IMG/VR virus record: IMGVR_UViG_3300011443_000002
Coordinates: 3,316-67,315 of that record
Origin: a virus
Length of the DNA: 64,000 nt
Direction: 5' to 3' (one strand)
Shown: piece by piece, positions 22,743 to 50,203 of the stretch
How the letters are laid out: each line of letters starts with the position of its first letter
Position numbering within the stretch: position 1 is the stretch's first letter
Made by a program: the position numbers and the translations under genes
Notes under the pieces: model-generated
Seen by the model: only the letters and a program-made list of their open reading frames with translations
Databases searched by the model: none
What the model was told of the DNA's origin: nothing

Positions 22743-23200
22743 GCCTCAATTCCATCATCCGTGCCGGTGTGGCTGTTGCTAACAGCGTCACAGCGGACTT
22801 ACAGGGGACAGTGACTCACGCTGCCTGGATTCGCCAGGACGAAATGGGTGCTGCTGTCTACGGCAGACGTGTTGAAGGACTCGACATCTACGGCGAAGCG
22901 GATGCCATCGGTGTCGCGACGCCACGTCAGGCTGTGATCGAATTGAAACAGCGTGCTCGAGAGGTGCAGGGAAGACACATTCTAACTTTCGCCCATTTGA
23001 CCTTCGTTGGTCCGATCCCTGTCAACGGTATGACAGACGCACGTAAGGAAGCGGTCGATCCTCGTGACGTGTTTGTTCTGCCTGATGGTAAGACCGGACC
23101 AGTGGTGGACGTCGAAGGTGTTGTGGATGCTGAGACTGGTTTGATGTATGCCGTGGAAGTGTGGCTCGGTGACATCAGCCGTGTCGGAGGAGCACAGTGA
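22739..23200 (+). CDS. Head closure (stopper)-like protein
   Basis: Position and size. Confidence 0.6.
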   Translation: MSLNSIIRAGVAVANSVTADLQGTVTHAAWIRQDEMGAAVYGRRVEGLDIYGEADAIGVATPRQAVIELKQRAREVQGRHILTFAHLTFVGPIPVNGMTDARKEAVDPRDVFVLPDGKTGPVVDVEGVVDAETGLMYAVEVWLGDISRVGGAQ

Positions 23201-24456
23201 CCTCTGATCTGACAATCCTGTGTGTGAGCAAGGGCGAGCCTTACACGAAGGAATTCTTCCGGCATTTCATGCTTGTCGCCGATGAGATCGGCGCTGAAGT
23301 TGTCCTTGCTCTCGACCATCCATCCGAGAGTGGCTCGGTTAGTGAGATGTGGACAGCTAAGAATGTGCGTTGGATTCGAGTCAAGTCAAGCGGATTCATC
23401 GAGTCAGTTCTGGACGAAGCCATCAGCAAGTGCCGCACGAAGTTCGTGCTTAGGCTGGACGACGATGAGAAGTGCTCACCTGCTCTCGTTCGCTGGCTCA
23501 AAGAAGGCAAGTATCTAGCAGCGTCGCACTGGAAGTTCCCACGTGTCCATCTCTGGAAGGATCAGCACACGTTCATCAACGCTGTGCCGCTCTGGCCTGA
23601 TCACCAGACACGTCTGTCGCTCAAGGAATTGAGCGGAGGACGCACGACAGTGCATGCAGGCAGTCCCTTCGGTGGAGGGACGTTGTGTCCTCATCCAATT
23701 GAGCATCACAAGTTCTTGGTGAAGGATCACGCCGAACGTCTCGCGATTGCCACTCGATATGAAGCCGTCCAGGCCGGTGCAGGCAGTCAGGGAATGTTGG
23801 CGTTCAACGATCCAGAGGCTTACTACAGCATGTCTCTGCCGCTCTCACCTTACGGAGAGACGGACGTTGTCAACAATGCGCTGACGGTTGCAGGCACGAT
23901 CGGCATGCACCAGCATGACGAAGAGATTCGGCCGTTTGCGGAGTGGCTCGCCACGAGACAGCCGCACCACGTCATTGAGATCGGCACGCTGAAAGGTGGA
24001 ACGGCTGCTCTCTGGCATGAGCTCTGCACAGGCACGGTTGTGAGTGTGGACCTTCCGAGCGGACGCTTCGGTGGAGCGGATCACGGATACAACGAAGAGG
24101 CTGTGCTCAAGCGGAATCAGACGCTGCAGAACAAGTTTCACAGGCTGCACTGTCTGTCGGCCAACAGCCACAGCAAGGAAACTCCGGAGCTTGTGCATTA
24201 CCTTCTGAAAGAGGAGCAGGCGGATTTTCTCTTCATTGACGGAGACCATACTTACGAAGGAGTCAAGGCGGACTTCGAGATGTATGCTCCGCTCGTGCGT
24301 CCCGGAGGTATCATCGCATTGCATGACGTGTTGGACACGCCAGTGCATCGCAGTGCAGGCTGTTACGTGAACAAGTTCTGGAATGAGTTGCCTCCGCACA
24401 AGGCTCTCTTTTCGTGCAATGGTCCATGGGGCGGAATCGGAGTGACGTTCCGATGA
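23197..24456 (+). CDS. GT-A glycosyltransferase fused to class I SAM methyltransferase (Methyltransf_24-like)
   Basis: LRLDDDE (DxD) and WPDHQTRL; IEIGTLKGGT, FLFIDGDHTYEGVKADF, PGGIIALHD. Confidence 0.9.
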   Translation: MTSDLTILCVSKGEPYTKEFFRHFMLVADEIGAEVVLALDHPSESGSVSEMWTAKNVRWIRVKSSGFIESVLDEAISKCRTKFVLRLDDDEKCSPALVRWLKEGKYLAASHWKFPRVHLWKDQHTFINAVPLWPDHQTRLSLKELSGGRTTVHAGSPFGGGTLCPHPIEHHKFLVKDHAERLAIATRYEAVQAGAGSQGMLAFNDPEAYYSMSLPLSPYGETDVVNNALTVAGTIGMHQHDEEIRPFAEWLATRQPHHVIEIGTLKGGTAALWHELCTGTVVSVDLPSGRFGGADHGYNEEAVLKRNQTLQNKFHRLHCLSANSHSKETPELVHYLLKEEQADFLFIDGDHTYEGVKADFEMYAPLVRPGGIIALHDVLDTPVHRSAGCYVNKFWNELPPHKALFSCNGPWGGIGVTFR

Positions 24457-25253
24457 TCACTCTGCCGCATCTCGAGACTAACGTGACCGTGGCCTGTCAG
24501 CTTCGGTGCGTGAGTTGCAATCACTTCGTTGCTCTCCAGGCTAACGAAGCTCGGAAACGCTTGGCTGATCCGGTGCAAGTCTATGATGATCTTGCTACGT
24601 TATCCAAGTTCGTTCATACAGATGCTTGGGGTGCTTTGGGTGGCGAGCCTCTGCTTCACCCTAATCTCGTGGATGTTCTAACGGCTGCACAAAAGAGCCG
24701 TATTGCAGACGTCATCGAGGTCTGGACCAATGGCATCGCTGTCCGTAAGATGGGTCCAGCGTTCTGGGATTCATTTGATCGTCTGGTGCTGTCCGTCTAT
24801 CCAGGCACGTTAGACGATGCAGAGATCGATTGGATCAAGGCAGCGTGCGTAGAGGCACAGGTGGAGTGTAGTGTCAAAGATGAACGAGTCGTCCCGAATT
24901 TTGAACGTCTACTGGAGCCATCACGATCTGCGCCTGCTGAGACACTTGCAAAGTATCGAGCGTGCTTCTTTAAGGACTACTCTCGCGTTGCAGATAACGG
25001 CTTTTTCTATCGTTGTTGCACTAGTCCTTTCATTCCTCGGTTACTTCTAGGACTGCCGGAAGGCACCGATGGAATTCGCATTTCGGATCTCACGGAATCG
25101 GCCTTGTTCATGTTCTTAGGTCAGCGTGAGGCACCAGCAAGTTGTCAGGTATGCTCCGGATTAGATCCGGCCATTCGTCGTCGCGTGGATTGGAAAGAAG
25201 AACGCAACCCTGAACGCTGGCTCGAGGCTTCTAAGAGCGAAAGAAAGATATGA
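24453..25253 (+). CDS. Radical SAM enzyme
   Basis: CQLRCVSC (CxxxCxxC), LGGEPLLHP, WTNG; extra C-terminal Cys; ATGA coupling. Confidence 0.9.
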   Translation: MITLPHLETNVTVACQLRCVSCNHFVALQANEARKRLADPVQVYDDLATLSKFVHTDAWGALGGEPLLHPNLVDVLTAAQKSRIADVIEVWTNGIAVRKMGPAFWDSFDRLVLSVYPGTLDDAEIDWIKAACVEAQVECSVKDERVVPNFERLLEPSRSAPAETLAKYRACFFKDYSRVADNGFFYRCCTSPFIPRLLLGLPEGTDGIRISDLTESALFMFLGQREAPASCQVCSGLDPAIRRRVDWKEERNPERWLEASKSERKI

Positions 25254-25402
25254 ACAATAGGTTCACCAGCTTTGTGTCCTTCTGGACAGTAGCTATCTTC
25301 ATCGAGATTGTGATGTTCTTTCTTGACGTCTATGTCTGGTTTAGATGGCAGGGAGCACGTGGTCAGTTCTATTTCAAGCGATTCCTCAAGGTGAGAGCAT
25401 GA
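25250..25402 (+). CDS. 50-aa single-TM peptide (below ORF-track cutoff)
   Basis: MNNRFTSFVSFWTVAIFIEIVMFFLDVYVWFRWQGARGQFYFKRFLKVRA; ATGA overlaps on both sides. Confidence 0.6.
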   Translation: MNNRFTSFVSFWTVAIFIEIVMFFLDVYVWFRWQGARGQFYFKRFLKVRA

Positions 25403-27504
25403 AAGTCTTCGTAAAGCCTCAGGAGGGACTCTCGCGCGCGATGGATCGTGTGGCCAGAGGTCTGACCGAAGATCAGGCTGTGACCGTCGTGGACCACGAA
25501 GAAGATGCAGATTTCGTGCTCATTCACGCGATCGGATTTCCCGAGACCGTTGCAGCCGTCAATCGTTGCCATGCACGTGGACAGCTTGTCGGCATCGCTC
25601 AGTATTGCCTTCGCACCACGCAGAAGCCGAACACGAAGGATTGGCTTCCGGTGTGGCAGAAGGCTGGACTCGTGTGGTCGTATTACGACATTCCTGCACT
25701 CTGCGAAGAGGATGGAGTCAAGGCCGAAGGCTTCGTGTTCTACCACTCGCCGCTCGGTTGTGAGCCAGCGATCTTCTACCCAAGCAACAACGGCAAGACA
25801 TACAAGATCGCAACATCTGGATATGTCGCTGCAACCGAATGTGTGATGGAGGCAAACATTGCCGTCACTAAACTTCGCAAGCGACAGTTTCATCTTGGTC
25901 CAGATAATCTCGGACTCACACGTGCAGCGGATTGTCGGCTCAACATTCCTGATGCTGAACTTGCCTCCCTTCTTGGCCAGTGTGAATTCGTGGCTGGTCT
26001 GAGACGTGTTGAAGGCTTTGAACTTCCTGCTGTGGAAGGTCTCTTCTGTGGAGCACGGCCGATCGTGTTTGATCGACCGCACTATCGGCACTGGTTTGGA
26101 GAGCTTGCGGAATACATTCCGGAACGTGAGCCTCATGCCGTCGTCGCTGATCTGATGGACGTCCTGTCGAAGCCTGCACGTCCGGTGACGGCTGCTGAGA
26201 GGCAGCAGGCGACCAGACTGTTTAGTTGGCCCGCTGTGGCTGCTGGCCTATGGTCGGCAGTGTCGGCCATGCCAAAGGCCGATCGCCTGTCCAGGCCAAT
26301 CAAGGCCAGCCGACGGCCACGGCTGCTGTATGTAGGGGACGCTGCCGTTGCCAGTGGTTTCGCTCGAGCCGCTCATCGAGGCATTCTCGCGGACGTGCAC
26401 AAGACGTTCGACGTCACGTGTCTCGGGATCAACTACATTGGCGATCCGCACACGTTTCCATATCGAATCTATCCGTGTCACGACTACTTCGGTGGCGATG
26501 CCTTCGGCACGTATCGCATGCCGAAGTTGGTGCAGAAGATTAAGCCGGAGCTTGCGATCATCCAGCAGGATCCGTGGAACTTTCCACCTTACTTTCACAG
26601 CATGGAGAAGTCCGAAGTCTCTGTGCCTGTGATTGGTGCTGTGGCTGTTGATGCTCTCAACTGTCGTGGCAAGTGTCTGAACAATCTCGTGACGGCTTCG
26701 TTCTGGACGGAGTTTGGCCGTGCAGAAGCGGAGAAAGGTGGATACGAAGGTCCATCGCAGGTGATTCCGCTCGGTGTGGATCTGGACATCTATCATCCGA
26801 TGGATCGTCATGATGCTCGTGTGATGCTTGGCATCCCGAAGGACTACTGCGAAGTCTTCATTGTTGGTAACGTCAATCGGAACCAGCCACGCAAGCGTCT
26901 GGATTTGACGATCGCGAACTTCGCCGAGTGGGTCAAGGCATACGGCATCAAAGACGCTTACCTGTATCTGCACGTGGCTCCGACAGGTGATCGTGGATAC
27001 GACGTCAAACAATTGATGGCGTATTACGGAGTGCTCGATCGTTTGATTCTTGCGGAGCCTGAATTGGGACAGGGTATGTCGGAGAAGATGCTGTCGGCGA
27101 CGTATGCAGCCTTCGACGTCCAGGTTTCAACGACACAGGGAGAAGGTTGGGGACTCACGACGATGGAAGGCATGGCCTGTGGAGTGCCACAGATCGTGCC
27201 GAAATGGTCTGCTCTCGGTGAGTGGGCTGCACCAGCCGCTCGTCTCGTGCCTTGCATCCGCGAAAACATCGTGACGGACAGCAACATCAACACGATCGGC
27301 GGAGTGGCATCGTCCCTCGCCTTCGTGGAGGCACTGCACGAAACTTACAGCGATGAGAGCCTCCGCAACGACATGCGGACTCGAGGTCTCGAGCTTGTGG
27401 CACGATCGGAATATCGGTGGGAGAGCATCGCCGCTCGGTGGCTGTCCCTCGTGTCTGAGACGTATGAAAGTCTTCAGACGAAGGCTCTCAAGGTGGCTGT
27501 CTAA
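25399..27504 (+). CDS. Tandem GT-B (GT4-like) glycosyltransferase, 701 aa
   Basis: Two catalytic motifs, EGFELPAVEGLFCG and EGWGLTTMEGMACG; VGNVNRNQPRKR. Confidence 0.92.
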   Translation: MKVFVKPQEGLSRAMDRVARGLTEDQAVTVVDHEEDADFVLIHAIGFPETVAAVNRCHARGQLVGIAQYCLRTTQKPNTKDWLPVWQKAGLVWSYYDIPALCEEDGVKAEGFVFYHSPLGCEPAIFYPSNNGKTYKIATSGYVAATECVMEANIAVTKLRKRQFHLGPDNLGLTRAADCRLNIPDAELASLLGQCEFVAGLRRVEGFELPAVEGLFCGARPIVFDRPHYRHWFGELAEYIPEREPHAVVADLMDVLSKPARPVTAAERQQATRLFSWPAVAAGLWSAVSAMPKADRLSRPIKASRRPRLLYVGDAAVASGFARAAHRGILADVHKTFDVTCLGINYIGDPHTFPYRIYPCHDYFGGDAFGTYRMPKLVQKIKPELAIIQQDPWNFPPYFHSMEKSEVSVPVIGAVAVDALNCRGKCLNNLVTASFWTEFGRAEAEKGGYEGPSQVIPLGVDLDIYHPMDRHDARVMLGIPKDYCEVFIVGNVNRNQPRKRLDLTIANFAEWVKAYGIKDAYLYLHVAPTGDRGYDVKQLMAYYGVLDRLILAEPELGQGMSEKMLSATYAAFDVQVSTTQGEGWGLTTMEGMACGVPQIVPKWSALGEWAAPAARLVPCIRENIVTDSNINTIGGVASSLAFVEALHETYSDESLRNDMRTRGLELVARSEYRWESIAARWLSLVSETYESLQTKALKVAV

Positions 27505-27902
27505 TGGCGTTCTCAATTAAGTTTGACGACCGTCAAGGCATCCGGCGCAAGCTCCAGAAGATGATGCAGGACACGCCAAGAGAAGTGAGCAAGGCTGTCC
27601 GCATGGAGGCAGAGATCGAAGCCACGGAATCCAAGCGTCGGACTCCGGTGGATCTCGGCAATCTCAAGGCGAGCATCCACGTGGAAGGTCCAGAGATTTC
27701 AGGCAATCAGATCAGCGCGACGATCGCTGCTGGTGGTCCGGCGGCTCCATATGCTGTCTACGTTCATGAGGATCTCAGCGCATATCACAAAGTCGGACAG
27801 GCCAAGTTCATCGAGTCCACGTTGAAAGAATCCGCTCCGTTTCTGCCTGCACGTATCGCGAAACGGTTGCGTGATAGTTTGCTGTCGAGAGCAGGACGCT
27901 AA
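27504..27902 (+). CDS. HK97 gp10-like neck protein
   Basis: TPVDLGNLKASI, YAVYVHE, GQAKFIES. Confidence 0.88.
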   Translation: MAFSIKFDDRQGIRRKLQKMMQDTPREVSKAVRMEAEIEATESKRRTPVDLGNLKASIHVEGPEISGNQISATIAAGGPAAPYAVYVHEDLSAYHKVGQAKFIESTLKESAPFLPARIAKRLRDSLLSRAGR

Positions 27903-28309: not shown

Positions 28310-28331
28310 CACCGACTCAAGGAGATCAACT

Positions 28332-28793: not shown

Positions 28794-28804
28794 TGAGTAA
28801 GACC

Positions 28805-28830
28805 GGGACAGGCCAATTCTGGCCTGTCCC
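28805..28830 (+). terminator. Intrinsic terminator-like hairpin
   Basis: GGGACAGGCCA-ATTC-TGGCCTGTCCC followed by ATTTC. Confidence 0.7.
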
Positions 28831-28850
28831 ATTTCATAGCGGAGACGACA

Positions 28851-29249: not shown

Positions 29250-29650
29250 AGCGAGGCACCTCAAGGCGATTCGCGTATCGGCTGGCTGTTAAGTTGGGCC
29301 AGCCGAGCGTGAATAAGATGCTTCGCGAAATGACGTGGCGAGAGTTTGAAGAGTGGGTCGAGTTTTTCCGGCGCGAACCGTTTGATGAAACCAGACAAGA
29401 CTATCGGATCGCGCAACTTGTTGCCACTCTGATCAATGTCAACAGGAGTAAGAAGCAGTCCCCTGTTACCGTTGACAAAGTAAGAATCCTCTTCGGCGAC
29501 GAGGAGGAAGTGAAACCGAGACAGACCGTCAAAGAGCAGCAGCAGATCGGCCAGATGTATGCGAACTTCTTCAACGCATTAGAAGAAGAGAAGCAGGCAA
29601 AGAAGGAGCAAGCTCGTGACCGGCGTAAATCTCGGAACACTATTCGCTAA
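29243..29650 (+). CDS. Tail assembly chaperone frameshift extension (gpT-like)
   Basis: MT-REF-EW-EFF--EPF--R-DYR-A pattern. Confidence 0.85.
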   Translation, partial: RLERGTSRRFAYRLAVKLGQPSVNKMLREMTWREFEEWVEFFRREPFDETRQDYRIAQLVATLINVNRSKKQSPVTVDKVRILFGDEEEVKPRQTVKEQQQIGQMYANFFNALEEEKQAKKEQARDRRKSRNTIR

Positions 29651-33844: not shown

Positions 33845-36772
33845 GTGGCTGAGACATACACCGTCGTTCTTACTGTCGATAGTATTGAACGTAATTGGCA
33901 GCCGACCACACTTAACCTTGAGAAAATCGGACTTGGCCGAACCGTCCTGAGGTTCGTGATCAATTCGGTTGTGGCTGGAGTTTCGTTTCCACGTGCCATC
34001 AAACGTGACCGCGTGATCCTTACGGTCAACGGTATCGAAGTATTTGATGGCATCATTTGGGCTGTTAACGAGACACGCATCTTCGAGAAGGTCGGTATTC
34101 TCCAGACGTGTGAGTGTGTGGACTTCGGTAAGCTGTCGGAGAAGGTTCTAATCAACGAGCCTCATGCCAGCAGTTCTCTGGAAGACGCTCTTACTCATGC
34201 TGTCGCCAATCTCCTGCCTCACACAATTGTTCCAGGCACGATGGCACCTTCCGGTGTCACCTTGCCTGACATGGCATGGGAATGGCTGACGATTCGTCAG
34301 ACGATCGAACTTCTCGCGTCCCTCAGTGGGTGGTTGCCAGAGTGGGACGGAAACGAAGTTATCTTCGTGGAGCCTGGAGCCACGGCTGCACCGTTTGATA
34401 TTGACGACGTTGAACCTAATTGGGTGTCGCTCAGCAAAGGTTCAACGCTCGAGGAGTATTGGAACGAAGTGTGGGGACGCTATGGTCCTCGCGGTCAGCT
34501 TCTTATCACACAGAGAATCACAGGCGATGGCGTAACAACGGAATGGCCGCTTGACGAAGCTCTAATCGTTGTCGGTGGTCAGGTGACTCCATCTGGTCTT
34601 GTGACTGTGACACGAAGCGGACCTTCTGAATCGCAGGAGACGACGGACGCTGTTGGTTATCCCGGATATGGACCGGGACAGTGGCACTATGATCCGAGGA
34701 ATTTGAACGACAACGTCATCATCCAGAACACTGGAGCCAGCACGATTCTCGGTGTTGGCGAGACGATGGACATTCAGTTCACTGCCTCGTTTCCTGGTGC
34801 TGTGTTCGCGCGCGAAGATACCGAATACGCAACCTTCGGTCCATTCACAGCACGTATTGACAATCCTAACATCACCAATAGAACCGAAGCACAGGCATGG
34901 GTCGATGCCAAACTTCAGGAGCTTGTGGGATCGCAGGAGAAGGTCATCGTCAAGACCAGAACGTATGGTCTCGAGCCGTTCCAGTCTCTTACCATCAACG
35001 TCGATGACTTTGAGATTGATGGCGACTATCTAATTCTCAAAACGCAGATGGCCCATGTCAGCAAGACGTCCAGTGGACGACACTTGTTTGATTGGACTAT
35101 TGAGTGCGTGCTCGGGAACCAGTATCGCGCAAATTGGGAACGCTTCTTCCGGCCAAATGCTGGCGTCCAGGGGACAGGTGGAGCCGCGATCTATACGCCG
35201 ATTCCGCTTGGAGGATGTGCAGCATCCACAGGCATCGTGCTATTCTCGGACAATTGGAATTCTGCCTCGACTCCTTACGAGAATTGGCCTGACAACGATG
35301 AAGGCGGAGGAGTGCCAGCAGCCGCTGACGATCTCGAGATCGCTGGTGGAGCCATTCGACTTGTCGGTAACGGCTTCTTGGCTGCTAACCATATCGGTAA
35401 GAGCTTTGAAGTTCAGTTCTTTGAAGGCTGTGTCGAATTCACTTACATGTCTGCCACAGGCTTGAGCACGTCCTCAACGACGGAGCTTGTGGAACTTGGT
35501 AGTCCAGATCCGCCTAACATCTATGTTGGTCCGTTCATCACGATTGGCCACGTCCACAATGGCGTGACTGACGAGCGGATGAGCATCATTTACGAAACAA
35601 ACTTCGGAGTTATTACCGCGTTCAACAGTGCAGCAGGCTTCATTAGCACGTCTGTCGCTGATCTTTACAGGCTGGAATTCAAGCTCAGTTACTCTAATGT
35701 TGGGTATCTGCGGTTGTATAAGAACAACGTCCTTGCTTTTGATTCCGGTGCGACACTCGATTGGCCTGGAAGTCTTGTGGCCAATGGCGGATTCCGTGCA
35801 GTGCGAGTGGCTCCGAAAGGCACGCTGGACAGCTTTGTTCTGCGTGTGCTGGACGCTACAGCCATCCCGAGTGCCAGCGTTTCACCGAGCAGCAGTGCAT
35901 CGCTGAGTGTGTCTCCGTCGTCTAGCATGAGTCCTAGTCCGTCGCCTGGTAACAGTTCAAGCGTCAGCCCTTCGGCATCTAGCAGCGTCAGTCCGTCCAG
36001 CAGCGAGAGCCGGAGTGCAAGTGCCAGCACCAGTCCATCGTCTTCCGTAAGTCCATCGTCGTCTGTTTCTCGCAGTGCAAGTTCCAGTGCGAGCCGTAGT
36101 CCGTCGCCTTCGAGCAGCCAGAGTCCAAGTCCGTCTCCGACACCGTCTCCGTCGGTCAGTCCGAGTGCTGGTGCAGGCTTCCCGGAAGTGCTTGGCATCG
36201 TCACTGGCAATCAGGCAGCAGCCACGTCGCACGCGATCAATCTTCCTGCTCACAACGCTGGTGATCTTCTGGCAGTGTTCTTCTCTTGTGGCACTGCGAC
36301 TGTTTCAATTGACACTGGTGCCTCTACTTCTGGATGGACTGTTAGAGGAGATCAGGCAGGCAGTTCAGGATCGGGTCGTGGTGTCATCTTGGAGAAGGTC
36401 GCTGACGACGGCTCAACGACACTGACGCTCACTACAAGTTCTTCGGTGGCATCGTCACACATTTCCATGCGGTCGAACGGCAGTGGTATCGACTGCACGG
36501 GCATCGGTTCAACTAGCAGAGATTGTCCTAATCATACTCCTGCAGGCGGGACGCAGGACTATCGCTGGCTCGCTGTTGATATGTGTGGTGCAGGTAACTT
36601 CCCGATGACATCAGCACCAACAAACTACGATGATCTTCGCTCGGTGGCTACGGGCACTCGGCCGAGCGTGTCGATTGCCGAGCGAGAGCTCAATGCTTCA
36701 TCTGAAAATCCAGGAACATACGGCGGATCTTTTGTAAATCGCACCACCTTCACAGCAGCCATCGCTCCATGA
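33845..36772 (+). CDS. Tail tip/hub protein with lectin-like middle, Ser/Pro tract and C-terminal beta domain
   Basis: Follows TMP; hub-like N-terminal ~430 aa; SPSSS repeats at residues ~675-775. Confidence 0.8.
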   Translation: MAETYTVVLTVDSIERNWQPTTLNLEKIGLGRTVLRFVINSVVAGVSFPRAIKRDRVILTVNGIEVFDGIIWAVNETRIFEKVGILQTCECVDFGKLSEKVLINEPHASSSLEDALTHAVANLLPHTIVPGTMAPSGVTLPDMAWEWLTIRQTIELLASLSGWLPEWDGNEVIFVEPGATAAPFDIDDVEPNWVSLSKGSTLEEYWNEVWGRYGPRGQLLITQRITGDGVTTEWPLDEALIVVGGQVTPSGLVTVTRSGPSESQETTDAVGYPGYGPGQWHYDPRNLNDNVIIQNTGASTILGVGETMDIQFTASFPGAVFAREDTEYATFGPFTARIDNPNITNRTEAQAWVDAKLQELVGSQEKVIVKTRTYGLEPFQSLTINVDDFEIDGDYLILKTQMAHVSKTSSGRHLFDWTIECVLGNQYRANWERFFRPNAGVQGTGGAAIYTPIPLGGCAASTGIVLFSDNWNSASTPYENWPDNDEGGGVPAAADDLEIAGGAIRLVGNGFLAANHIGKSFEVQFFEGCVEFTYMSATGLSTSSTTELVELGSPDPPNIYVGPFITIGHVHNGVTDERMSIIYETNFGVITAFNSAAGFISTSVADLYRLEFKLSYSNVGYLRLYKNNVLAFDSGATLDWPGSLVANGGFRAVRVAPKGTLDSFVLRVLDATAIPSASVSPSSSASLSVSPSSSMSPSPSPGNSSSVSPSASSSVSPSSSESRSASASTSPSSSVSPSSSVSRSASSSASRSPSPSSSQSPSPSPTPSPSVSPSAGAGFPEVLGIVTGNQAAATSHAINLPAHNAGDLLAVFFSCGTATVSIDTGASTSGWTVRGDQAGSSGSGRGVILEKVADDGSTTLTLTTSSSVASSHISMRSNGSGIDCTGIGSTSRDCPNHTPAGGTQDYRWLAVDMCGAGNFPMTSAPTNYDDLRSVATGTRPSVSIAERELNASSENPGTYGGSFVNRTTFTAAIAP
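35867..36169 (+). repeat. ~100-aa Ser/Pro low-complexity tract
   Basis: [27 protein letters not shown]... Confidence 0.95.
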
Positions 36773-43295: not shown

Positions 43296-43326
43296 CGCGG
43301 GATGGGACACAACGTCTCATCCCGCG
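43296..43326 (+). terminator. 13-bp hairpin between lysis and glycosylation genes
   Basis: CGCGGGATGGGAC-ACAAC-GTCTCATCCCGCG; no U tract. Confidence 0.55.
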
Positions 43327-43339
43327 AAGGCATATTCCC

Positions 43340-44245
43340 ATGTCTAAACTGTCGATCATACTGCCGTCCCGGAACGAACCTTTCCTGCCTCAGACAATTG
43401 AGGCTGTGCTCAGCAAGGCTCGCGGAGAAGTTGAAGTGATCGCCGTGCTTGATGGATACTGGCCGATTCCATCGCTTCGTGACGATCCTCGTCTCGTGAT
43501 CCTGCATCGTGGCTCTGCTCGTGGGATGCGTCCAGCCATCAACGCTGCTGTCTCCGTGGCATCAGGTGAGTGGCTGATGAAGTTAGATGCACACTGCGAT
43601 GTCTCGGAAGGCTTTGACGAAATTCTCAAGGCCGAATGCGAGAGGAATTGGATCGTGGTTCCTCGTCGCATGTCGCTGGATCCGTTCAATTGGTGCAAGG
43701 AAGAAAATGGTAAGTCACCTGTTGATGCCCACTATCTCTCTTATCCGTTCGAGCGTCCCGGCGATGCATCGTGTGGCCTTCATGGGACAGTGTGGAACGC
43801 TCGTGCTCGTGCACGCCAGCACGTTCTCCTTGATGAAGAGATGTCGTCTCAAGGATCTTGCTGGTTCATGCACCGCGAACACTGGACGCGTCTCGGACCT
43901 ATGGAGGTATCTAAGTATGGAAATTTCATACAGGAATTCCAGGAGATCGGCCTAAAGACGTGGCTCGGTGGTGGACAGGTGATGGTCAATAAGAAGTGCC
44001 ATTATCTCCACTGGCACAAAGGCAAACACGGCCGACAGTATTTCATCTCGAGTAAGGAGATGGCTGCTGGTGCAGCCTTCGCGACACAGTATTGGATGAC
44101 GGACTCGTGGTCCGATCGTGTGCACGATCTCAAGTGGTTTATCGAAAGATTCTGGCCGGTGCCAGGATGGCCGAAGGATCTTGATGCAGCCTTCGCTGAT
44201 GCACGAAACAAACTTGGAGCCAACAGAAAGCTGATCACCGTATGA
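43340..44245 (+). CDS. GT2-family glycosyltransferase
   Basis: LSIILPSRNE, EVIAVLDG, G-R-AIN, LMKLDAH. Confidence 0.92.
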   Translation: MSKLSIILPSRNEPFLPQTIEAVLSKARGEVEVIAVLDGYWPIPSLRDDPRLVILHRGSARGMRPAINAAVSVASGEWLMKLDAHCDVSEGFDEILKAECERNWIVVPRRMSLDPFNWCKEENGKSPVDAHYLSYPFERPGDASCGLHGTVWNARARARQHVLLDEEMSSQGSCWFMHREHWTRLGPMEVSKYGNFIQEFQEIGLKTWLGGGQVMVNKKCHYLHWHKGKHGRQYFISSKEMAAGAAFATQYWMTDSWSDRVHDLKWFIERFWPVPGWPKDLDAAFADARNKLGANRKLITV

Positions 44246-44904
44246 GCCGCGAAACTGACACGCTTGACACTCTCTATACGCTCTATCCAGGCACACCGAA
44301 GATCGTGCCGGACAAGTATGCTCCTCTCGAGATTCCCAACCGTGTTCGTGACGATATCCCAACTATGTTGGATATCTTGTTCAAGGATCAGACTCGAATC
44401 GTTGGTGCAGAGATTGGCGTTGAGCGAGCCGTGTTCAGTGAGGTGCTGCTTCGGTCTCCACGTCTCGAGCTTCATTTGATCGATCCGTGGCAGGCTTATC
44501 CGGGATATCGTGATCACGTGACTCAGGAGAAGTTGAACGGCTTCTATGAACACGTCCAAGAAATTCGCCAGAAGTATCCACAGCGAACAGCCTTGTGGCG
44601 CATGACCAGCGTAGAAGCGGCACGTAACTTTGCCGATTTCAGCCTGGACTTCGTTTACATCGACGGCAATCATACGCTGCCATATGTGATCATGGACCTT
44701 GCAGCCTGGACGCGGAAGGTGCGTCCCGGAGGTCTAATCATGGGCCACGACTATCGGAAGCCGAAGAACAACATCGGCCATCATGTTGTGGAAGCCGTCA
44801 ACGCTTGGACCTATGGCTATCGCATATGTCCGTGGTTCCTGCTCGGTGCCAAAGGTGACGAGCACCGAGATCAGAATCGCACTTTCTTCTGGGTGGCACA
44901 GTGA
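44242..44904 (+). CDS. Class I SAM methyltransferase (Methyltransf_24-like)
   Basis: GAEIGVERA, DFVYIDGNH, KVRPGGLIMGHDY. Confidence 0.92.
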   Translation: MSRETDTLDTLYTLYPGTPKIVPDKYAPLEIPNRVRDDIPTMLDILFKDQTRIVGAEIGVERAVFSEVLLRSPRLELHLIDPWQAYPGYRDHVTQEKLNGFYEHVQEIRQKYPQRTALWRMTSVEAARNFADFSLDFVYIDGNHTLPYVIMDLAAWTRKVRPGGLIMGHDYRKPKNNIGHHVVEAVNAWTYGYRICPWFLLGAKGDEHRDQNRTFFWVAQ

Positions 44905-46670
44905 GCAAGTTGGTTTCCATCTTGATCCCTGCTCGGAATGAAGAGTGGCTCGCTCGCACGGTGGAGGACGTTGTCACCAAGATGAAAGGTGACAGCGAGG
45001 TCATCGTGGTTCTTGACGGTGCATGGGCTGAGCCTCCATTAGACAAGAATGATCGCGTCACGGTGATCAAACTTCCGCATAGCATCGGCCAGAGAGCAGC
45101 CACGAACATGGCTGCTCGAGTGGCTCAGGGAAAGTATGTCATGAAGCTTGATGCTCACTGCCAGGTGGGTGAAGGCTTCGACAAAATCCTTGCAGAGCAC
45201 GGAGACGCTCTCGGCCCGAACGTGTGCCAGATCCCTGCTCAATACAATCTCCATGCGTTCAATTGGGTGTGCACCGGAGGACACAAAGTCTATCAGGGTC
45301 CGACTCCGGTCAACGGTTGCACGTGGAAGCCTAAGAACGCGAAGGTCGAGGATCCGATCTGTGGACTGCCTGCCACTCGAGAGATCGTATGGAAGCGTCG
45401 CACCTCTCGTCTGACAACGTCGTGGCGTTTCGATAAGAGCTTGCATTTCCAGTATTGGGGACAGCATCAGGAGATTCATAAGAAGGAACAGATTCACGAC
45501 GTGATGTCTTGCCTCGGTGCGTGCTGGTTTGTGAACAGAGGTCACTTCTTACTCCTCGGAGGATTAGACGAAGCACACGGATCGTGGGGACAGATGGGCA
45601 CTGAGCTTGCGTGCAAGTTCTGGCTCAGCGGAGGACGTATGGTCGTGAATAAGCATACGTGGTTCGCTCACCTGTTCCGGACACAAGGCGGAGACTTCAG
45701 CTTTCCGTATCCACTCAGCGGCACACAGCAGGCACAGGCTCGAGAGAGAAGTGCATGGCTCTGGAAGCAAGGCAATTGGCCGATGGCAATACGAACGCTC
45801 AAGTCTCTTATCCAGCAGTTTGATCCTCCTGATTGGAAGGAAAAGACCAATGGCCTATCTGGACGCACGACACATCCGACAGTGGTCGAACGAGAGGCTG
45901 GCAGCAGCATTAGTATCAGCGTCAGCCATGCCTTCGACGACTCCGGGCAAGCTCTCAGTGATGTTAGAAGTGATGCGCCGACTAAAGGATGCATCTGGTA
46001 TACTGACCATCGAGCCTCAGAAGCAATCTTGTTCAGTTCACTTGACCATATCCAGCGGGCTGCACCACATTTCCCTCTAGTGCGTGTTGGTATTGAGCAC
46101 GTTCCTTACATCGATGTGCTTGTTCCAAATAGTCAGCGTGGTTATCTGACTATGTTCAAGCAGATCGTTGCTGGTCTGCGAGCACTCAAGACAGATATTG
46201 TGTTCTTTTGTGAGCACGACGTGCTGTATCATCCGTCTCACTTCGAGTTTGATCCACCGAAGCGAGATGTGTATTACTACAACATGAATGTCTGGAAGGT
46301 GGATGTCTCGAGCGGTCGTGCTGTGACCTACAGGACGAAGCAGACGTCCGGCCTTGTTGGTTACAGAGAGCTTCTGTTGGAACACTACACGAAGCGAGTG
46401 GAGCTTGTGAAGCGGAACGGCTTCTCTCGCAAGATGGGATTTGAGCCTGGATCCCATGGACGTTCGGAGCGTGTGGACGATATCAAGTCTGAGGAATTCA
46501 GATCAGAGTTTCCCAACATTGATCTGAGACACAGCAAGAACCTGACGCCAACACGGTGGATGCAGGCTCAGTTTCGTGATCAGCGTAACTGTCGGGACTG
46601 GAAGTTGAGCAACGCAGAAAACATCCCTGGCTGGCCTGGATTGGCGAGCTTCTTGGAGAGCATCAAATGA
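44901..46670 (+). CDS. GT2 glycosyltransferase fused to a second GT-A domain
   Basis: VSILIPARNE...MKLDAH; second domain IWYTD...FFCEHDVLYHPSHF. Confidence 0.9.
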   Translation: MSKLVSILIPARNEEWLARTVEDVVTKMKGDSEVIVVLDGAWAEPPLDKNDRVTVIKLPHSIGQRAATNMAARVAQGKYVMKLDAHCQVGEGFDKILAEHGDALGPNVCQIPAQYNLHAFNWVCTGGHKVYQGPTPVNGCTWKPKNAKVEDPICGLPATREIVWKRRTSRLTTSWRFDKSLHFQYWGQHQEIHKKEQIHDVMSCLGACWFVNRGHFLLLGGLDEAHGSWGQMGTELACKFWLSGGRMVVNKHTWFAHLFRTQGGDFSFPYPLSGTQQAQARERSAWLWKQGNWPMAIRTLKSLIQQFDPPDWKEKTNGLSGRTTHPTVVEREAGSSISISVSHAFDDSGQALSDVRSDAPTKGCIWYTDHRASEAILFSSLDHIQRAAPHFPLVRVGIEHVPYIDVLVPNSQRGYLTMFKQIVAGLRALKTDIVFFCEHDVLYHPSHFEFDPPKRDVYYYNMNVWKVDVSSGRAVTYRTKQTSGLVGYRELLLEHYTKRVELVKRNGFSRKMGFEPGSHGRSERVDDIKSEEFRSEFPNIDLRHSKNLTPTRWMQAQFRDQRNCRDWKLSNAENIPGWPGLASFLESIK

Positions 46671-47767
46671 CACTTGGCACGCATGCAAACAAGCTGGATC
46701 GTTGGCTCGGTCCGGAAGAAACGGCACGAATCTCTCATGCGATGAAGGATTGGTATGGTCCGCCGATCGCTGTGGGTGGAGTGCCAGGACGCGTGTTCGC
46801 GCACAAAGGTGGAGACTTCCGTGGTCCGATTCGCAGCGGTCAGTTTCTCCGCGATATCGAATTCGCTGAGATGAGACTCCGCAAGCGTTTCCGTCCTGCA
46901 CTTACGAGGATGAATGCAGGCTTCGCCAGCCTCTCCGATTTGATCGCGGAAGGGACCACTGGCAAAGCTCGCTGGTTCATGTTCAACAAGGTCGGCACCA
47001 CTGGCGTCGTCAACGTGACGAATAGTCTGTGGCTCGTGGGTGCGATGCCTGCTGCTGGTGCAGCCGGATCTGCTGCTCCCGGAGGACGTGCACCAGATGA
47101 CAGCACGACTGGTGCATTTCCGTTCACCAATCCGACAGGTGGAGATACACAGCATTTCACGACAGGGTATCCGCTGTCCGGTGTGGCTGGTAACACGCTG
47201 CTGTTGTATGACCGGATCTTCGACGTCGCGAAGACGATGAACAGCAGTGCCACGGAATCTGTGACTGGCGTGCCAACACGGTATCAGTCGAGCACCACGA
47301 CGGATCCGGACTATGCCGGAGGGAACTTTCTGTTCGTAGAAGTTGGAACGGTGCTCGCCGCTACAGCCCACAACTGGACGGTCTGTCAGTATCGTGATGA
47401 AGCCGGTAACGATGCTCAGACGCTTCCATCTCTGACTGGCAACAGCGGAGCAATTGCCAATCGGTTGGATCATCCTGTGGGTCAGTGGTTCGCTCCGCTC
47501 GCCACAGGTGATACGGGCATCAAGGATCTGCATCAGATGCAGTGTTCTGCCGCTGTTGCCACAGGCACGATCAACTTCGTCATCGGCCATCCGATCGCAT
47601 GGATGCCGTGTCCTGTTGCCAACATGATTTGTATCGCAGACGGCATCAATACCGCGTTCAATCTTACGCGGATCTTTGATGACGCGTGCCTCGCGTTCTT
47701 GGAAGTATGTAAGCCTGCCACAACGGCGACGACTTACAACGGTCAGTTCATGACTGTCGCAGGATAA
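46667..47767 (+). CDS. Putative virion structural protein (Gly/Thr/Ala-rich, beta-rich)
   Basis: Composition and late-operon position. Confidence 0.6.
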   Translation: MTLGTHANKLDRWLGPEETARISHAMKDWYGPPIAVGGVPGRVFAHKGGDFRGPIRSGQFLRDIEFAEMRLRKRFRPALTRMNAGFASLSDLIAEGTTGKARWFMFNKVGTTGVVNVTNSLWLVGAMPAAGAAGSAAPGGRAPDDSTTGAFPFTNPTGGDTQHFTTGYPLSGVAGNTLLLYDRIFDVAKTMNSSATESVTGVPTRYQSSTTTDPDYAGGNFLFVEVGTVLAATAHNWTVCQYRDEAGNDAQTLPSLTGNSGAIANRLDHPVGQWFAPLATGDTGIKDLHQMQCSAAVATGTINFVIGHPIAWMPCPVANMICIADGINTAFNLTRIFDDACLAFLEVCKPATTATTYNGQFMTVAG

Positions 47768-47773
47768 GAACCA

Positions 47774-50203
47774 ATGCGCTTCTACTCATCGGCGGGTCGA
47801 GTCTTTCTCGCTGCTCAATTGCAGTGGGCACCGACGCTCATATCGCACAATCCGAATCCTCCGATTGTTATTGAGCAGACGGAACATCCGTCGGCGAGTG
47901 CGAGCCAGTCGCCGAGTAGCAGCGTCTCGAGCAGTGCTTCGCCGAGTGGATCGTCGTCTGTTAGTCCCTCGGCTTCGGTATCGCCTTCTCCAGCACCAAC
48001 GATTCCGCCGACAGTTACAGCATCGGCTGGTCCTCACACTCTTACAGGTGGTGGGGATGTTATCTCGGTTGTTGGTCTGTCGTTGCAGGTTGGTGACGTT
48101 GTCGGTGTTCTGGGTCAAGTTGGAGGTCCAGATCCGCAGGCACTGTTTCCAAGTGATAACGCGACTCCTCCGAACACATATGAGTATGTCGAATTCCCAA
48201 GTGGATTCGGCATCATGTTCTGTGCCGTGGCACGTATCGTCAACGTGCCTACACAGGTCAGTCTCAATCCCAGTGGAAGCATCGACTTTGGTAAGTGCTA
48301 CACAATAAAGATTGAAGACGCGGCTGTCTCAGGAACGCTCATTCAGGATGATGCAGGTATCGACACTGATTTCAGTGGAGACGATACTGAGACGCTGCCT
48401 GCTATTGTTTCACTCGCGCAAGCATCCGGTCTGTTGCTTGCGACTGGTGGTGCAGCAGGTTTCGGCGACATCATTGTTGGTTACACAGAAATTCAAGGTT
48501 CGTTTTCTGCTGAAGTGTCAGCAGGATGGGAATCTGTAACGAGCACTGGTCCACACTCTGCGATCCAGGTAATCGACGAGCCTGGTGGCGGAGACGGTGT
48601 TATTTATCACATCGCCATCGCAGGTGACGTTCCTGCTGGTAGCAGTCCAAGCGTCTCTCCGAGTGCCTCTGTTAGTCCGTCGTCGTCTGCATCGCCGAGC
48701 GTCTCTCCATCGGCGAGCGTCTCTCCATCGTCCTCCGTCTCTCCGTCGGTCTCTCCGTCTGCGTCTGTTAGTCCATCGTCGTCTGTCTCGCCGAGCGTCT
48801 CGCCTTCGGCTTCGGTGTCGCCGAGCAGCAGCACCAGTCCATCGGTGTCGCCTTCGGCCAGCCTGTCGCCATCGTCGTCCGTCTCTCCGTCCGTCTCTCC
48901 GTCGGCGAGCCAGAGTCCCTCATCCTCGGTCTCGCCGAGTGTCTCTCCGTCTGCGTCCGTCTCTCCGTCTTCGTCTGCCTCTGCGTCCGTCTCACCTTCG
49001 GCCAGCATCAGCCCTTCGGCGAGCGTATCGCCTAGCAGCAGCGAGAGTCCATCCGTATCGCCATCGGCGAGTGTCAGCCCTTCGTCTAGTGTCTCGCCGA
49101 GCGTCTCGCCTTCTGCCTCTGTCTCTCCGTCGTCCTCCGTCTCTCCGTCTGTTAGTCCTTCTGCCTCTGTCTCGCCGAGCAGCAGCGTATCGCCGAGCGT
49201 ATCGCCATCGGCCAGTGTTTCACCGAGCAGCAGCGTATCGCCGAGCGTCAGCCCTTCGGCGAGCGTATCGCCATCGGCCAGCGTCAGCCCGTCCTCAAGC
49301 GTCTCTCCGTCGGTCTCTCCGTCTGCCTCTGTCTCTCCGTCTTCGTCGATCTCTCCGTCTGTCTCTCCGTCGTCGTCCGTCTCTCCGTCTGAGTCTCCGA
49401 GCGTCTCTCCGTCGGCCAGCGTCAGCCCATCCAGCAGCGTCAGCCCAAGCGTCAGCCCTTCGGCCAGCGTCAGCCCAAGTTCGTCCGAATCGCCTAGTGT
49501 CTCGCCTAGTGCCAGCGTTTCGCCTAGCAGCAGCGTTTCTCCGTCGGTCAGCCCAAGTGCCAGCATCAGCCCTTCGGCGTCCCTGAGTCCATCTGCGTCC
49601 GTTTCTGCTAGTGTTTCGCCGAGCAGCAGTCCGAGTCCATCTCCAGGGGACAGCCCAAGCGTCAGCCCTTCGGCATCCGTGTCGCCGAGCGTCTCGCCTT
49701 CGTCGTCGATCTCTCCGTCTGCCTCCGTCTCTGCGTCTGTCTCTCCGTCTTCGAGCCAGAGTCTTTCGGTCTCTCCGTCTGCCTCTGTGTCGCCGAGCAG
49801 CAGCGAGAGTGCCTCCGTATCACCTTCGGCCAGCGTTTCACCGAGCAGCAGCACCAGTCCATCCGTCAGCCCTTCGGCCAGCATCAGTCCCTCGGCGAGC
49901 GTCTCGGCTTCCGTCTCTCCGTCTGCCTCTGTCTCTCCGTCGTCGAGCCAGAGTCTTTCTGCCTCTCCATCGGCCAGCAGTAGTGAGTCACCAAGCGTCA
50001 GCCCGTCCTCGAGTGTCTCGGCTTCGCCTAGTCCCTCGATACCTCCGGCCTTCGTCACGTCCGTCAAGTTCCTGAACGTGCGGCTCAGGCCAGTGATGGC
50101 ACTTGGGAACATCCGTCTTGGTGCTCCGACGCTTGTTCTTGTTGATCAGACCGTGGAAGAAGAAGGTCCACAGTTTTCTAACGTGAGGATCAGAATCGTA
50201 TGA
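47774..50203 (+). CDS. Mucin-like Ser/Pro-repeat protein, 809 aa (putative virion fibre)
   Basis: Short S/P patch, beta-rich domain, 466-aa SPS repeat, short C-terminal domain. Confidence 0.85.
48641..50038 (+). repeat. 466-aa tandem repeat, ~16-aa unit [16 protein letters not shown], synonymously diversified
   Basis: Read directly from the translation; Ser encoded by alternating TCN and AGY blocks. Confidence 0.97.

Follow-up and report, generated by a model that had tools for sequence, protein, structure and literature searches.

A phage-borne cassette of GT27-like glycosyltransferases accompanies Ser-X repeat proteins and probably O-glycosylates them

A three-gene enzyme cassette in the late operon of an uncultured siphovirus is nearly always accompanied, in other phages, by virion-type proteins carrying Ser-X repeats, and the phage therefore most likely coats its own fibers with mucin-like sugars. 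The window analyzed, 64,000 nucleotides in length, covers positions 3316-67315 of a 67,368 bp IMG/VR record that has direct terminal repeats and a completeness rating of 100%; its source is a complete ~67.4 kb siphovirus genome. The late operon lies on the + strand in the order portal, protease, decoration protein, MCP (20892), Ad1 (22224), cassette 1, Neck1 (27504), MTP (28332), TAC, TMP (29616-33842), and 33845 onward, genes being named by their start positions. Both enzyme cassettes of the original prediction are present, cassette 1 at 23197-27504 and cassette 2 at 43340-46670. The translational coupling proposed for them is visible in the coordinates as start/stop overlaps at 23197/23200, 44242/44245, 44901/44904, 46667/46670, and 50200/50203, and overlapping start and stop codons join the genes from 43340 to 50553. 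Cassette 2 and the proteins discussed with it are as follows.

43340..44245, + strand: 301-aa DxH GT-A enzyme (Pfam GT2), paralog of the 44901 N-domain, without its Cys insertion
44242..44904, + strand: Methyltransf_24 SAM-dependent methyltransferase (Pfam, 1.7e-14)
44901..46670, + strand: 589-aa enzyme with an N-domain (aa 1-314, Pfam GT2), a disordered linker (315-357), and a C-domain (aa ~355-589), from Pfam and an AF2 model
46667..47767, + strand: 366-aa beta-sandwich protein, highly conserved (at least 2811 relatives, the best 120 at 64-81% identity)
47774..50203, + strand: 809-aa fiber-like protein with an adaptor, two Ser-X tracts, and a globular domain
33845..36772, + strand: 975-aa protein encoded immediately behind the tape measure, at the tail-tip position; a 99-aa (Ser-X)n tract separates its two globular parts

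The Ser/Pro tracts were confirmed by searching all six frames for alternating Ser; within real genes, three such stretches and no others were found, at 35870-36166 (99 aa), at 47891-47989 (33 aa), and at 48644-50038 (465 aa). In the longest tract, Ser occupies 232 of 235 alternate positions over ~465-471 aa. Its 16-aa superperiod is stronger in the protein (autocorrelation 0.81) than in the DNA (0.54), and repeats found by TRF in the DNA match only 65-87%, indicating a selected peptide pattern rather than a recent slippage array. The 47774 product begins with an adaptor at aa 1-35 ([21 protein letters not shown]), followed by the short Ser-X linker (47891-47989), a globular domain (aa ~90-290), the 465-aa (Ser-X)n tract (48644-50038), and a C-terminal piece of ~50 aa. 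The sole homolog of the 33845 product, P0126 (45% identity), is encoded in a 68.9 kb relative of the phage (L270) and also carries a Ser-X tract in the corresponding position. The globular parts of both repeat proteins had no homolog in 86 cassette-2 loci; the tract alone was common.

Association between the enzymes and the repeats was examined in both directions. Relatives of the 44901 product are encoded in 498 IMG/VR contigs and 167 MAG contigs, and none was found among 50,697 GenBank phage records, so no cultured phage carries the enzyme. The predicted co-occurrence of glycosyltransferase (GT) cassettes with repeat genes proved strong for cassette 2: a same-strand ORF with a Ser/Pro tract of at least 60 aa lay within 10 kb in 65 of the 80 viral loci fetched (46 of the 50 that were at least 15 kb long). 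Such an ORF was found at 0/54 control phage structural loci (Fisher p 7e-24, a value that overstates the evidence since the loci are phylogenetically non-independent). The result was replicated in GTDB MAG contigs, where a repeat ORF accompanied 33 of 42 loci of at least 15 kb. Loci where no repeat ORF was detected (15/80 viral and 37/80 MAG) were mostly, not always, short or cut. Starting instead from the six best Ser-X repeat proteins on contigs >20 kb, GT2 genes lay directly upstream on the same strand in all six, with Methyltransf_24 also present in five and a long GT2 (525-584 aa) in three. The backbones of these phages are mutually unrelated, and the three cassette-2 proteins of the window are 31-49% identical to their counterparts there. 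Within the lineage, enzyme and repeats are found both or neither: they occur together in the window and in L270, whereas 20 related records have no enzyme and no repeats (one has a weak repeat match, with stops). A repeat protein that served the enzymes as scaffold or partner, and not as acceptor, would be expected to be encoded beside them in the same way.

The cassette itself is conserved in order, with 43340 relatives in 75 of the 86 loci that hold a 44901 relative and 44242 relatives in 61 of them, encoded between the two GTs. The 44901 N-domain is a GT27-like DxH GT-A domain with a four-Cys insertion. PDB sequence matches, both for the product and for the family profile, were nearly all ppGalNAc-Ts, and the top 32 Foldseek PDB matches of its AF2 model (pLDDT 88.9; E 4e-14 to 1.5e-12, ~310-365 aligned columns) were all ppGalNAc-Ts. 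Its LDAHC (D84, H86) and AHLFR (H257) motifs align with FLDAHCE and GHVFR, and none of D84, H86, and H257 varies among 52 family members. W229-G230-x2-G233-x-E235, likewise invariant in the 52, is aligned to WGGENxE; the motif is not identical and is degenerate in the 43340 product, which keeps the D-A-H and distal His when aligned with the 44901 N-domain. In sequence and predicted structure, the evidence thus supports placing the GT-A enzymes of cassette 2 closest to the eukaryotic mucin-initiating ppGalNAc-transferases (GT27), although DxH enzymes of this fold could have other acceptors.

Solved GT27 enzymes (human GalNAc-T2, PDB 2ffu/4d0t; mouse T1, 1xhb; Toxoplasma T3, 6s22) share with the 44901 N-domain the GT-A fold, the D-x-H plus distal His metal site, and, in a non-identical form, the W-G...E motif, and they act on Ser/Thr/Pro-rich tandem repeats, as the candidate acceptors here are. 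Identity to them is remote (15-20%). The viral enzyme differs in lacking a ricin-type lectin domain, a membrane anchor, and a secretory location, and in having the four-Cys insertion, an unrelated C-terminal domain, and a prokaryotic viral context. That C-domain had no Pfam match and no PDB match by profile, and its relatives form virus-only clusters; its model is Rossmann-like in its beta-alpha-beta pattern, an invariant E-H-D follows one strand, and the domain occurs as a separate gene in two contigs (L104 and L105). Five of the six GT domains originally counted across the two cassettes were verified, the sixth, this C-domain, being without GT-A support; the two methyltransferase (MTase) domains and the single radical SAM enzyme were all verified. 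The 44242 product is a probable sugar O-methyltransferase.

Taken with the co-occurrence data, these features make it probable that cassette 2 forms a portable unit with which a phage O-glycosylates, in the cytoplasm, the (Ser-X)n tracts of its own fiber-type proteins. The tail-tip protein (33845) and the fiber (47774) would be synthesized late in infection alongside the cassette enzymes. One of the two soluble DxH GT-A enzymes, most likely the 44901 N-domain, would take a host nucleotide sugar as donor and glycosylate the hydroxyls of Ser residues along the extended Ser-X tract. Its Mn2+ site would have the architecture known from the mucin-initiating ppGalNAc-transferases. Elongation or variation of the glycan may then fall to the 43340 paralog and the 44901 C-domain, and its O-methylation to the Methyltransf_24 enzyme. 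The result would be a bottle-brush spacer on the virion that is stiff, hydrated, and resistant to proteases and reaches a length of up to ~465 residues.

Cassette 1, in the neck module, encodes three further proteins.

23197..24456, + strand: GT2-fold (GT-A) domain fused to a Methyltransf_24/CmcI-like (rhamnosyl O-MTase-like) domain, from Pfam and an Atlas structure match
24414/24453..25253, + strand: small radical SAM enzyme, MoaA/twitch-like (PDB 7wzv, 1.3e-25)
25345..27504, + strand: tandem GT4 with an N half (aa ~16-305) and a C half (aa ~320-715), from Pfam, PDB, and profile matches

Pfam by itself gave a weak match (E 0.059) for the GT2 (GT-A) fold at aa 1-225 of the 23197 product; its Atlas structure matched GT2 clusters at TM 0.70-0.83, and the MTase part matched Methyltransf_24/CmcI in Pfam at 5e-15. 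The radical SAM product was below threshold in Pfam, with weak NCBIfam rSAM matches alongside the PDB match. Its gene likely starts at the ATG at 24453, overlapping the upstream stop; the corresponding Atlas record, from residue 14 on, falls in clusters that are mostly viral. One relative (G003) shares the N-domain of the 23197 product (43%) and has a radical SAM homolog (48%). The compact N half of the tandem GT4 is GT4-like, keeps the EX7E motif, and matches the GT4 enzyme 7qsg by profile (1.4e-9). For the C half, Pfam gives GT1 (7e-11), and its best solved relative is the chlorovirus glycosyltransferase B736L (PDB 3oy2, 7.5e-9). Cyanosiphovirus S-CBS4 encodes in its head module, as gp14-16, a GT4 (32.5% identity), a galactosyltransferase, and a SAM-MTase between portal and protease. 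Both of these known systems are without Ser-X repeat proteins and cassette 2.

Under the original prediction, the cassettes cooperate in one pathway: a common methylated glycan is assembled on the Ser/Pro repeats, and the tandem GT4 plays the part of GtfA/GtfB. Consistent with this, both lie in the same late operon, L270, the closest relative, keeps the two-module 724-aa GT4, cassette 2, and the Ser-X tract together, and among the 86 cassette-2 loci the N half of the 25345 product occurs as a separate gene in five and a C-half-like GT4 in two. However, the C half is syntenic in 54 IMG/VR loci, adjoining Neck1/MTP genes, with a repeat ORF in 0/54, and 7-8 near-complete relatives keep it without repeats and cassette 2. 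Retention of a transferase in relatives that have no repeats had been named beforehand as speaking against the prediction, and for cassette 1 this is what was found. The neck-module slot is a hypervariable glycan-gene slot whose accessory genes are wholly different from relative to relative and which, throughout the lineage, is invariably closed by one and the same GT4; neither half of the tandem GT4 matched GtfA/GtfB in the PDB. A single pathway is therefore unlikely. A virion O-glycosylation system dedicated to the repeat proteins is supported by co-occurrence for cassette 2 and not for cassette 1, which does not track the repeats. Cassette 1 is best read as a system apart from cassette 2; its probable role is to glycosylate a different virion component or, in this phage alone, to contribute to the same glycan.

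A broader proposal can be made tentatively, at somewhat less than even chances. A large, uncultured, host-diverse set of tailed phages, on contigs binned with CPR bacteria, Chloroflexota, Planctomycetota, Gammaproteobacteria, and even DPANN and other archaea, may build mucin-like methylated O-glycan brushes on dedicated (Ser-X)n fiber segments, using virus-borne structural cousins of the eukaryotic mucin-initiating enzymes, with the present phage adding a second, independently evolving glycan system in its neck module. If so, this phage has two virion glycosylation systems. To our knowledge, a mucin-like sugar coat on a phage's own fibers has yet to be demonstrated experimentally for any phage of this kind, and no comparable phage system was found in the literature surveyed.

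Both repeat proteins are likely located in the virion. The 33845 product takes the obligatory tail-tip position directly after the tape measure. The N-terminal adaptor of the 47774 product is common to genes following 46667 relatives in two other phage contigs (L102 and L271) and is weaker in a third (L272); in one such contig (G021), the adaptor-bearing gene is the last of the tail module before the endolysin. Relatives of 46667 always precede a gene with the adaptor motif, and the 46667 product, whose model (pLDDT 84) has no clear PDB structural relative, is a probable, still putative, virion docking partner of the fiber. Many repeat proteins of other contigs carry LamG_3, tail-collar, or Sipho_Gp37 domains. 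The term tail fiber does not hold in general, since some other phages have the repeat gene next to head or neck genes. Glycosylated Ser-X proteins that are released or cell-associated, serving as fibers or adhesins in lysis debris, in biofilm, or on the host surface, would fit the position of 47774 after the lysis genes, the missing structural match for 46667, and the many 44901 relatives on MAG contigs >100 kb. The tail-tip position, the shared adaptor, the tail-type domains, and the fact that neither repeat protein has a signal peptide or N-terminal hydrophobic signal make this non-virion role quite improbable.

Least probable is that the tracts are plain, unmodified flexible linkers while the transferases act on phage DNA or host envelope glycans. 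Action of phage GTs on DNA and on O-antigen is well known (PMC12619734), and TS-family (thymidylate-synthase-like) and FkbM MTase genes at 61426-63599 are compatible with this reading. Against it, enzyme and repeats are very tightly associated while all other surroundings vary; the GTs belong to the late structural operon, with replication and modification genes encoded on the other strand; TM segments, a flippase, and a Gtr-type acyltransferase are absent; and the nearest matches to the predicted fold are GT27 enzymes, which act on peptides. None of the six enzymes of the two cassettes has a hydrophobic segment (maximum 19-residue hydropathy ≤1.27), which, together with repeat proteins that have no signal peptides, fits cytoplasmic protein glycosylation and not lipid-linked envelope modification. 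Seroconversion of the Gtr type (GtrA/GtrB/GtrC), which uses a membrane-bound bactoprenol GT2, a flippase, and a serotype-specific membrane GT, fits neither these hydropathy values nor the location of the genes among late structural genes, and no integrase was found among the genome proteins scanned.

The proposed cytoplasmic modification of the Ser-X tracts by cassette 2 resembles, at the level of genes, the serine-rich repeat proteins (SRRPs; Fap1, GspB, and PsrP, with GtfA/GtfB) and staphylococcal Ser-Asp proteins (SdgA/SdgB), which have long (Ser-X)n tracts modified in the cytoplasm by soluble GTs encoded nearby, several of which add sugars stepwise, as proposed here. Ser-Asp dipeptide repeats are GlcNAc-modified by SdgB and SdgA, and the glycan guards against proteolysis (PMC3794999). 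The streptococcal GtfA/GtfB analogy drawn originally is nevertheless not the best one: initiating enzymes of those systems are GT-B (GT4 type), whereas the enzymes that track the repeats here are DxH GT-A, closest to GT27. Here, moreover, X is Pro, Val, or Ala, the carrier is a phage protein, and there is no accessory Sec system (SecA2/SecY2/Asp export genes had no Pfam match among the operon proteins scanned), KxYKxGKxW signal, or LPXTG anchor.

Virion glycosylation was reportedly described by Freeman et al. in 2023 for mycobacteriophages Che8, Corndog, and Myrna. That work is cited in PMC12619734 and PMC12582341, and the former places the glycans on the C-termini of capsid and tail-tube subunits. 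Phage-encoded GTs are reported to modify the phage's own structural proteins there, as gene position and co-occurrence suggest here. Unlike the mycobacteriophage acceptors, the MCP and MTP of this phage have no Ser/Thr-rich C-terminal tail. The candidate acceptors are instead dedicated repeat tracts in fiber-type proteins, and the enzyme families differ.

The virus record (67,368 bp, of which the window covers 3316-67315) has direct terminal repeats and is rated complete in IMG/VR. Its siphovirus late operon lies on the + strand of the window, from ~14.8 to 51 kb, and encodes a portal, a protease, a head decoration protein, and a chaperone in addition to the proteins given below, where single coordinates are gene starts.

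Replication, structural, and lysis genes on the + strand
9233-11239, + strand, VapE-type primase
20892, + strand, major capsid protein (MCP), late operon
22224, + strand, Ad1 adaptor, late operon
27504, + strand, Neck1, late operon
28332, + strand, major tail protein (MTP), late operon
29616-33842, + strand, tape measure protein (1408 aa), late operon
38580, + strand, GH108 endolysin, amid distal genes and with small membrane proteins

The closest cultured phages are Brevundimonas phages, which are remote (38% MCP identity). Replication genes in the minus-strand regions encode UvrD and SNF2 helicases, an exonuclease, a thymidylate-synthase-family enzyme, and an FkbM methyltransferase. The thymidylate-synthase-family gene and the FkbM-type methyltransferase gene of this module (61426-63599, - strand), which are Pfam matches only, agree with a separate suggestion of possible thymine hypermodification.

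Two enzyme cassettes interrupt the structural genes.

Enzymes of the two cassettes
23197-24456, + strand, cassette 1, GT2-fold domain fused to a Methyltransf_24/CmcI-like methyltransferase
24453-25253, + strand, cassette 1, small radical SAM enzyme (sub-threshold in Pfam; match to PDB 7wzv at 1.3e-25)
25345-27504, + strand, cassette 1, genuine tandem of two GT4-type modules
43340-44245, + strand, cassette 2, GT2
44242-44904, + strand, cassette 2, Methyltransf_24
44901-46670, + strand, cassette 2, enzyme with an N-terminal GT2 domain

The original prediction held that both cassettes O-glycosylate virion Ser/Pro repeats, using six glycosyltransferase domains. Every enzyme element that it listed was found at the coordinates given, and five of the six domains were confirmed. 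The sixth, placed in the last ~230 residues of the 44901 product, had no relative in Pfam or in a PDB profile search. This C-terminal domain is conserved and virus-only, falls in Atlas clusters without families, and is a separate gene in the loci of some relatives. Its predicted topology is beta-alpha-beta, and an E-H-D that follows a strand is invariant. Both features would be in keeping with a GT-A domain, a status that is unproven because the two-GT-A alignment of the 44901 product to the chondroitin polymerase K4CP was poor (TM 0.30, rmsd ~17). The radical SAM enzyme belongs to mostly viral clusters, and the deposited name of its best solved relative, 7wzv, is uninformative. Coupling of cassette 2 to neighboring genes, also predicted, is apparent from the coordinates, with start/stop overlaps joining cassette 2, 46667, 47774, and 50200. 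No sugar-nucleotide pathway is encoded in the window; a UDP-glucose dehydrogenase, DegT aminotransferases, or a formyltransferase are added in some other loci.

Within real genes, a six-frame scan for serine at alternate positions returned exactly the three Ser/Pro tracts that had been listed, in the genes encoding the 33845 product and the fiber-like 47774 product. The pattern is more regular than "Ser/Pro-rich" implies: in these (Ser-X)n repeats X is Pro, Val, Ala, or Ser, and serine occupies 232 of 235 alternate positions of the long tract. Conservation of its 16-residue superperiod is far higher at the protein level than at the DNA level. A frame artifact was ruled out for the repeat ORF, since the frame runs on from 290 non-repeat residues upstream and into 50 downstream, and since the tract is kept in P0126, the 33845 homolog encoded by the related contig L270. 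Searching a protein collection with the 47774 product identified hundreds of proteins with SPSxSPSxS tracts on 40-45 kb contigs, many of them with LamG_3, tail-collar, or Sipho_Gp37 domains. No close relatives of the N-terminal 300 aa of the 47774 product were found in IMG/VR.

Cassette 2 and the Ser-X repeats belong together. Genomic context was retrieved for six repeat proteins on long contigs whose phage backbones are otherwise unrelated. GT2 genes lay directly upstream on the same strand in six of six, accompanied by Methyltransf_24 in five and by a 525-584 aa GT2 in three, and the three cassette-2 proteins of the window were 31-49% identical to the homologs beside those repeat proteins. 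Relatives of the 44901 product in IMG/VR were recovered with an alignment-based profile (498 contigs), a single-sequence scan having returned none. The profile also matched 167 contigs among GTDB species genomes; the 80 of these that were listed were all uncultured assemblies, nearly all labeled MAG, and were mostly Patescibacteria, with some Gammaproteobacteria, Anaerolineae, and Planctomycetota and a few archaea.

We defined a repeat ORF as one of ≥200 aa with a Ser/Pro tract of ≥60 aa, on the same strand as the enzyme and within 10 kb of it. The co-occurrence of enzyme cassettes and repeat genes expected from the original prediction was observed for cassette 2: repeat ORFs were present in 65 of the best 80 viral loci (of 498), in 46/50 of those loci that were ≥15 kb, and in 33/42 MAG loci ≥15 kb, versus 0/54 control loci, which were phage structural regions fetched via the cassette 1 GT4 (Fisher p 7e-24 for viral loci against controls, a value that ignores relatedness of loci). 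The order 43340-like, 44242-like, 44901-like was kept in 56 of 86 loci. Since the globular parts of both window repeat proteins had no homolog in any of the 86 enzyme loci, only the tract travels with the enzymes. Within the lineage of the window, the enzyme and the repeats are present or missing together. Both are missing from twenty related records, and the closer relative L270 (68.9 kb) has cassette 2 along with a Ser-X tract in P0126, at the corresponding position of the tail-tip protein. Two phages with cassette and repeats can thus be set against twenty relatives with neither, as a natural experiment.

Some relatives of the 44901 product are on archaea-binned contigs (Pacearchaeota, Nanoarchaeota, Methanotrichaceae, and Thermoplasmatota; loci L210, L226, L234, L253, and L266), and on some of these Ser-X repeat ORFs adjoin them. 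Misbinning may account for these contigs; alternatively, the module may extend to viruses of archaea.

The only significant PDB sequence relatives of the 44901 N-terminal domain were ppGalNAc-transferases (family GT27), the enzymes that start mucin-type O-glycosylation. When the family profile was compared with the PDB, the top 14 matches were all ppGalNAc-transferases (best 1.2e-8), and the alignment extends over the N- and C-terminal halves of the catalytic domain. In it, LDAHC aligns with the D-x-H of GT27, W-G-x2-G-x-E with the Gal/GalNAc-T motif, and AHLFR with the histidine of GHVFR; these residues do not vary among 52 family members. The AlphaFold2 model derived from this alignment, with a mean pLDDT of 88.9, likewise had ppGalNAc-transferases as its top 32 Foldseek PDB matches. 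The 43340 product is a paralog with the same D-A-H and distal histidine but without the four-cysteine insertion of the 44901 family. This insertion (residues 124-154) has invariant cysteines at 124, 140, and 154 and a nearby conserved cysteine, and may be a zinc-ribbon-like element. Unlike GT27 enzymes, the two proteins have no lectin domain and no membrane anchor, and identity to GT27 is only 15-20%; they are GT27-like enzymes, not members of GT27. No hydrophobic segments were detected in the six enzymes and no signal peptide on either repeat protein. Any modification would therefore be cytoplasmic and use nucleotide sugars, resembling that of SRRP and Ser-Asp repeat proteins (PMC3794999). 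Gtr-type seroconversion was rejected, as there are no membrane proteins for it.

We infer that both repeat proteins are likely virion parts. The 33845 gene starts two bases past the tape measure stop codon. The 47774 product opens with an adaptor motif of ~35 residues ([21 protein letters not shown]; 47774-47880). In all contexts inspected, the same adaptor (MRFYS..QLQWAPxLxSHxPNPP) begins the gene after the 46667 relative: in L102 (from related genome G021; 291-2690) and L271 (9151-9954) and, in weaker form, in L272 (9118-12246), and sequences beyond it are unrelated. In G021, the tail genes end with the adaptor-bearing gene, ahead of the endolysin. A shared adaptor with an unrelated remainder is the usual signature of an exchangeable fiber with a conserved docking piece. 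The adjacent 46667 product (46667-47767, 366 aa) has >2800 relatives, the top 120 at 64-81% identity, and its conservation far exceeds that of all other structural genes here. Its model is a predicted beta-sandwich that had no PDB match below E 1e-3 by Foldseek, only generic jelly-roll/CBM/TNF-like sandwiches by VIA-align (Z ≤5.7), and only uncharacterized uncultured-phage proteins in BFVD. Complex prediction that paired residues 1-90 of the 47774 protein with the 46667 product (score 0.00, partner pLDDT 33) was neutral on docking.

Cassette 1 behaves differently. The C-terminal GT4 module encoded by 25345 is conserved at 43-56% identity. In 54 viral loci it sits between Neck1/MTP and the connector genes, and it is also found in 8 of 10 near-complete relatives; Ser-X repeats and cassette 2 are absent from these 54 loci and eight relatives. 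The predicted glycosylation system is thus partly supported: for cassette 2, which co-occurrence ties to the repeats, but not for cassette 1, the GT4 of which is conserved without them. The slot just upstream of the neck GT4 is hypervariable across relatives.

Contents of the slot upstream of the neck GT4
Window: GT2-MTase and radical SAM enzyme, both common to related genome G003
G001 (L061:1828-10589): DegT aminotransferase, hexapeptide acyltransferase, CAP59-like mannosyltransferase
G007 (L075:7936-12962): GT2/GT7C enzyme, methyltransferase, B12-radical SAM enzyme, another GT2
G005 (L086:7754-9453): radical SAM-SPASM enzyme, GT2
L270 (1-4223): DegT and CAP59-like genes

With a fixed transferase behind a fast-exchanged sugar-tailoring set, this part of the head-neck module resembles a surface-glycan locus that is under diversifying selection. 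Such a pattern fits virion glycosylation of a target other than the repeats. No Ser/Thr-rich tails were found on the MCP or MTP of the window, in contrast to mycobacteriophages, for which PMC12619734 reports such tails. Some cross-talk between the cassettes is possible in this phage because five cassette-2 loci have a stand-alone gene for the N-terminal GT4 module found in the 25345 product.

We consider it fairly probable that the window encodes a putative portable phage O-glycosylation/methylation module for (Ser-X)n fiber segments, together with an independent neck-slot glycan locus. Functionally, the module is closest to the Ser-X repeat glycoproteins of Gram-positive cocci; its enzymes are closest to GT27, and among viruses the nearest precedent is the glycosylation of mycobacteriophage virions. 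Each of these is set apart from the window system by a defining feature. The literature searched contained no description of phage Ser-repeat fibers with dedicated GT27-like enzymes, and 44901 and 43340 had no match in 50,697 GenBank phage records. The window offers a complete siphovirus, not of the CPR type, with the module and two separate candidate acceptor proteins, and a clean presence/absence contrast within its lineage that separates the repeat-linked cassette from the second, neck-module glycan system. If this reading is correct, virion glycosylation would not be confined to a few mycobacteriophages. As a modular trait it would be widespread among environmental phages and have an enzyme family of its own, one that no cultured phage genome searched contains, and it would parallel, in viruses of prokaryotes, mucin-type O-glycosylation. 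There would be implications for the protease resistance, hydration, and adhesion to glycan matrices of phage fibers, for the origin of GT27-like enzymes, and for the annotation of metagenomic "auxiliary metabolic" glycosyltransferase genes, many of which are now read as host O-antigen modifiers. Because the module is small (three genes and a repeat tract) and directly testable by heterologous co-expression, it might serve as a tool to produce polypeptide brushes with defined O-glycosylation.

Glycan-related genes were also observed near head or tail genes in other phages. In the more distant relative G013 (L003:11394-15285; 43% MCP identity), a protein with a weak MptE/Maf-like match, a 785-aa MTase-GT9-like-GT8-like fusion, and a sulfotransferase are encoded right after the capsid gene. 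G021 (L048) has two paralogous GT4 genes (848-2032 and 7087-8226), one in the neck slot and the other directly after the tape measure gene. The cultured cyanosiphovirus Synechococcus phage S-CBS4 (L189, NC_016766.1 9916-12282) encodes a GT4, a galactosyltransferase, and a SAM-MTase between portal and protease; its GT4 is 32.5% identical to the C-terminal half of the window GT4, and S-CBS4 is a possible tractable model for head-module glycosylation.
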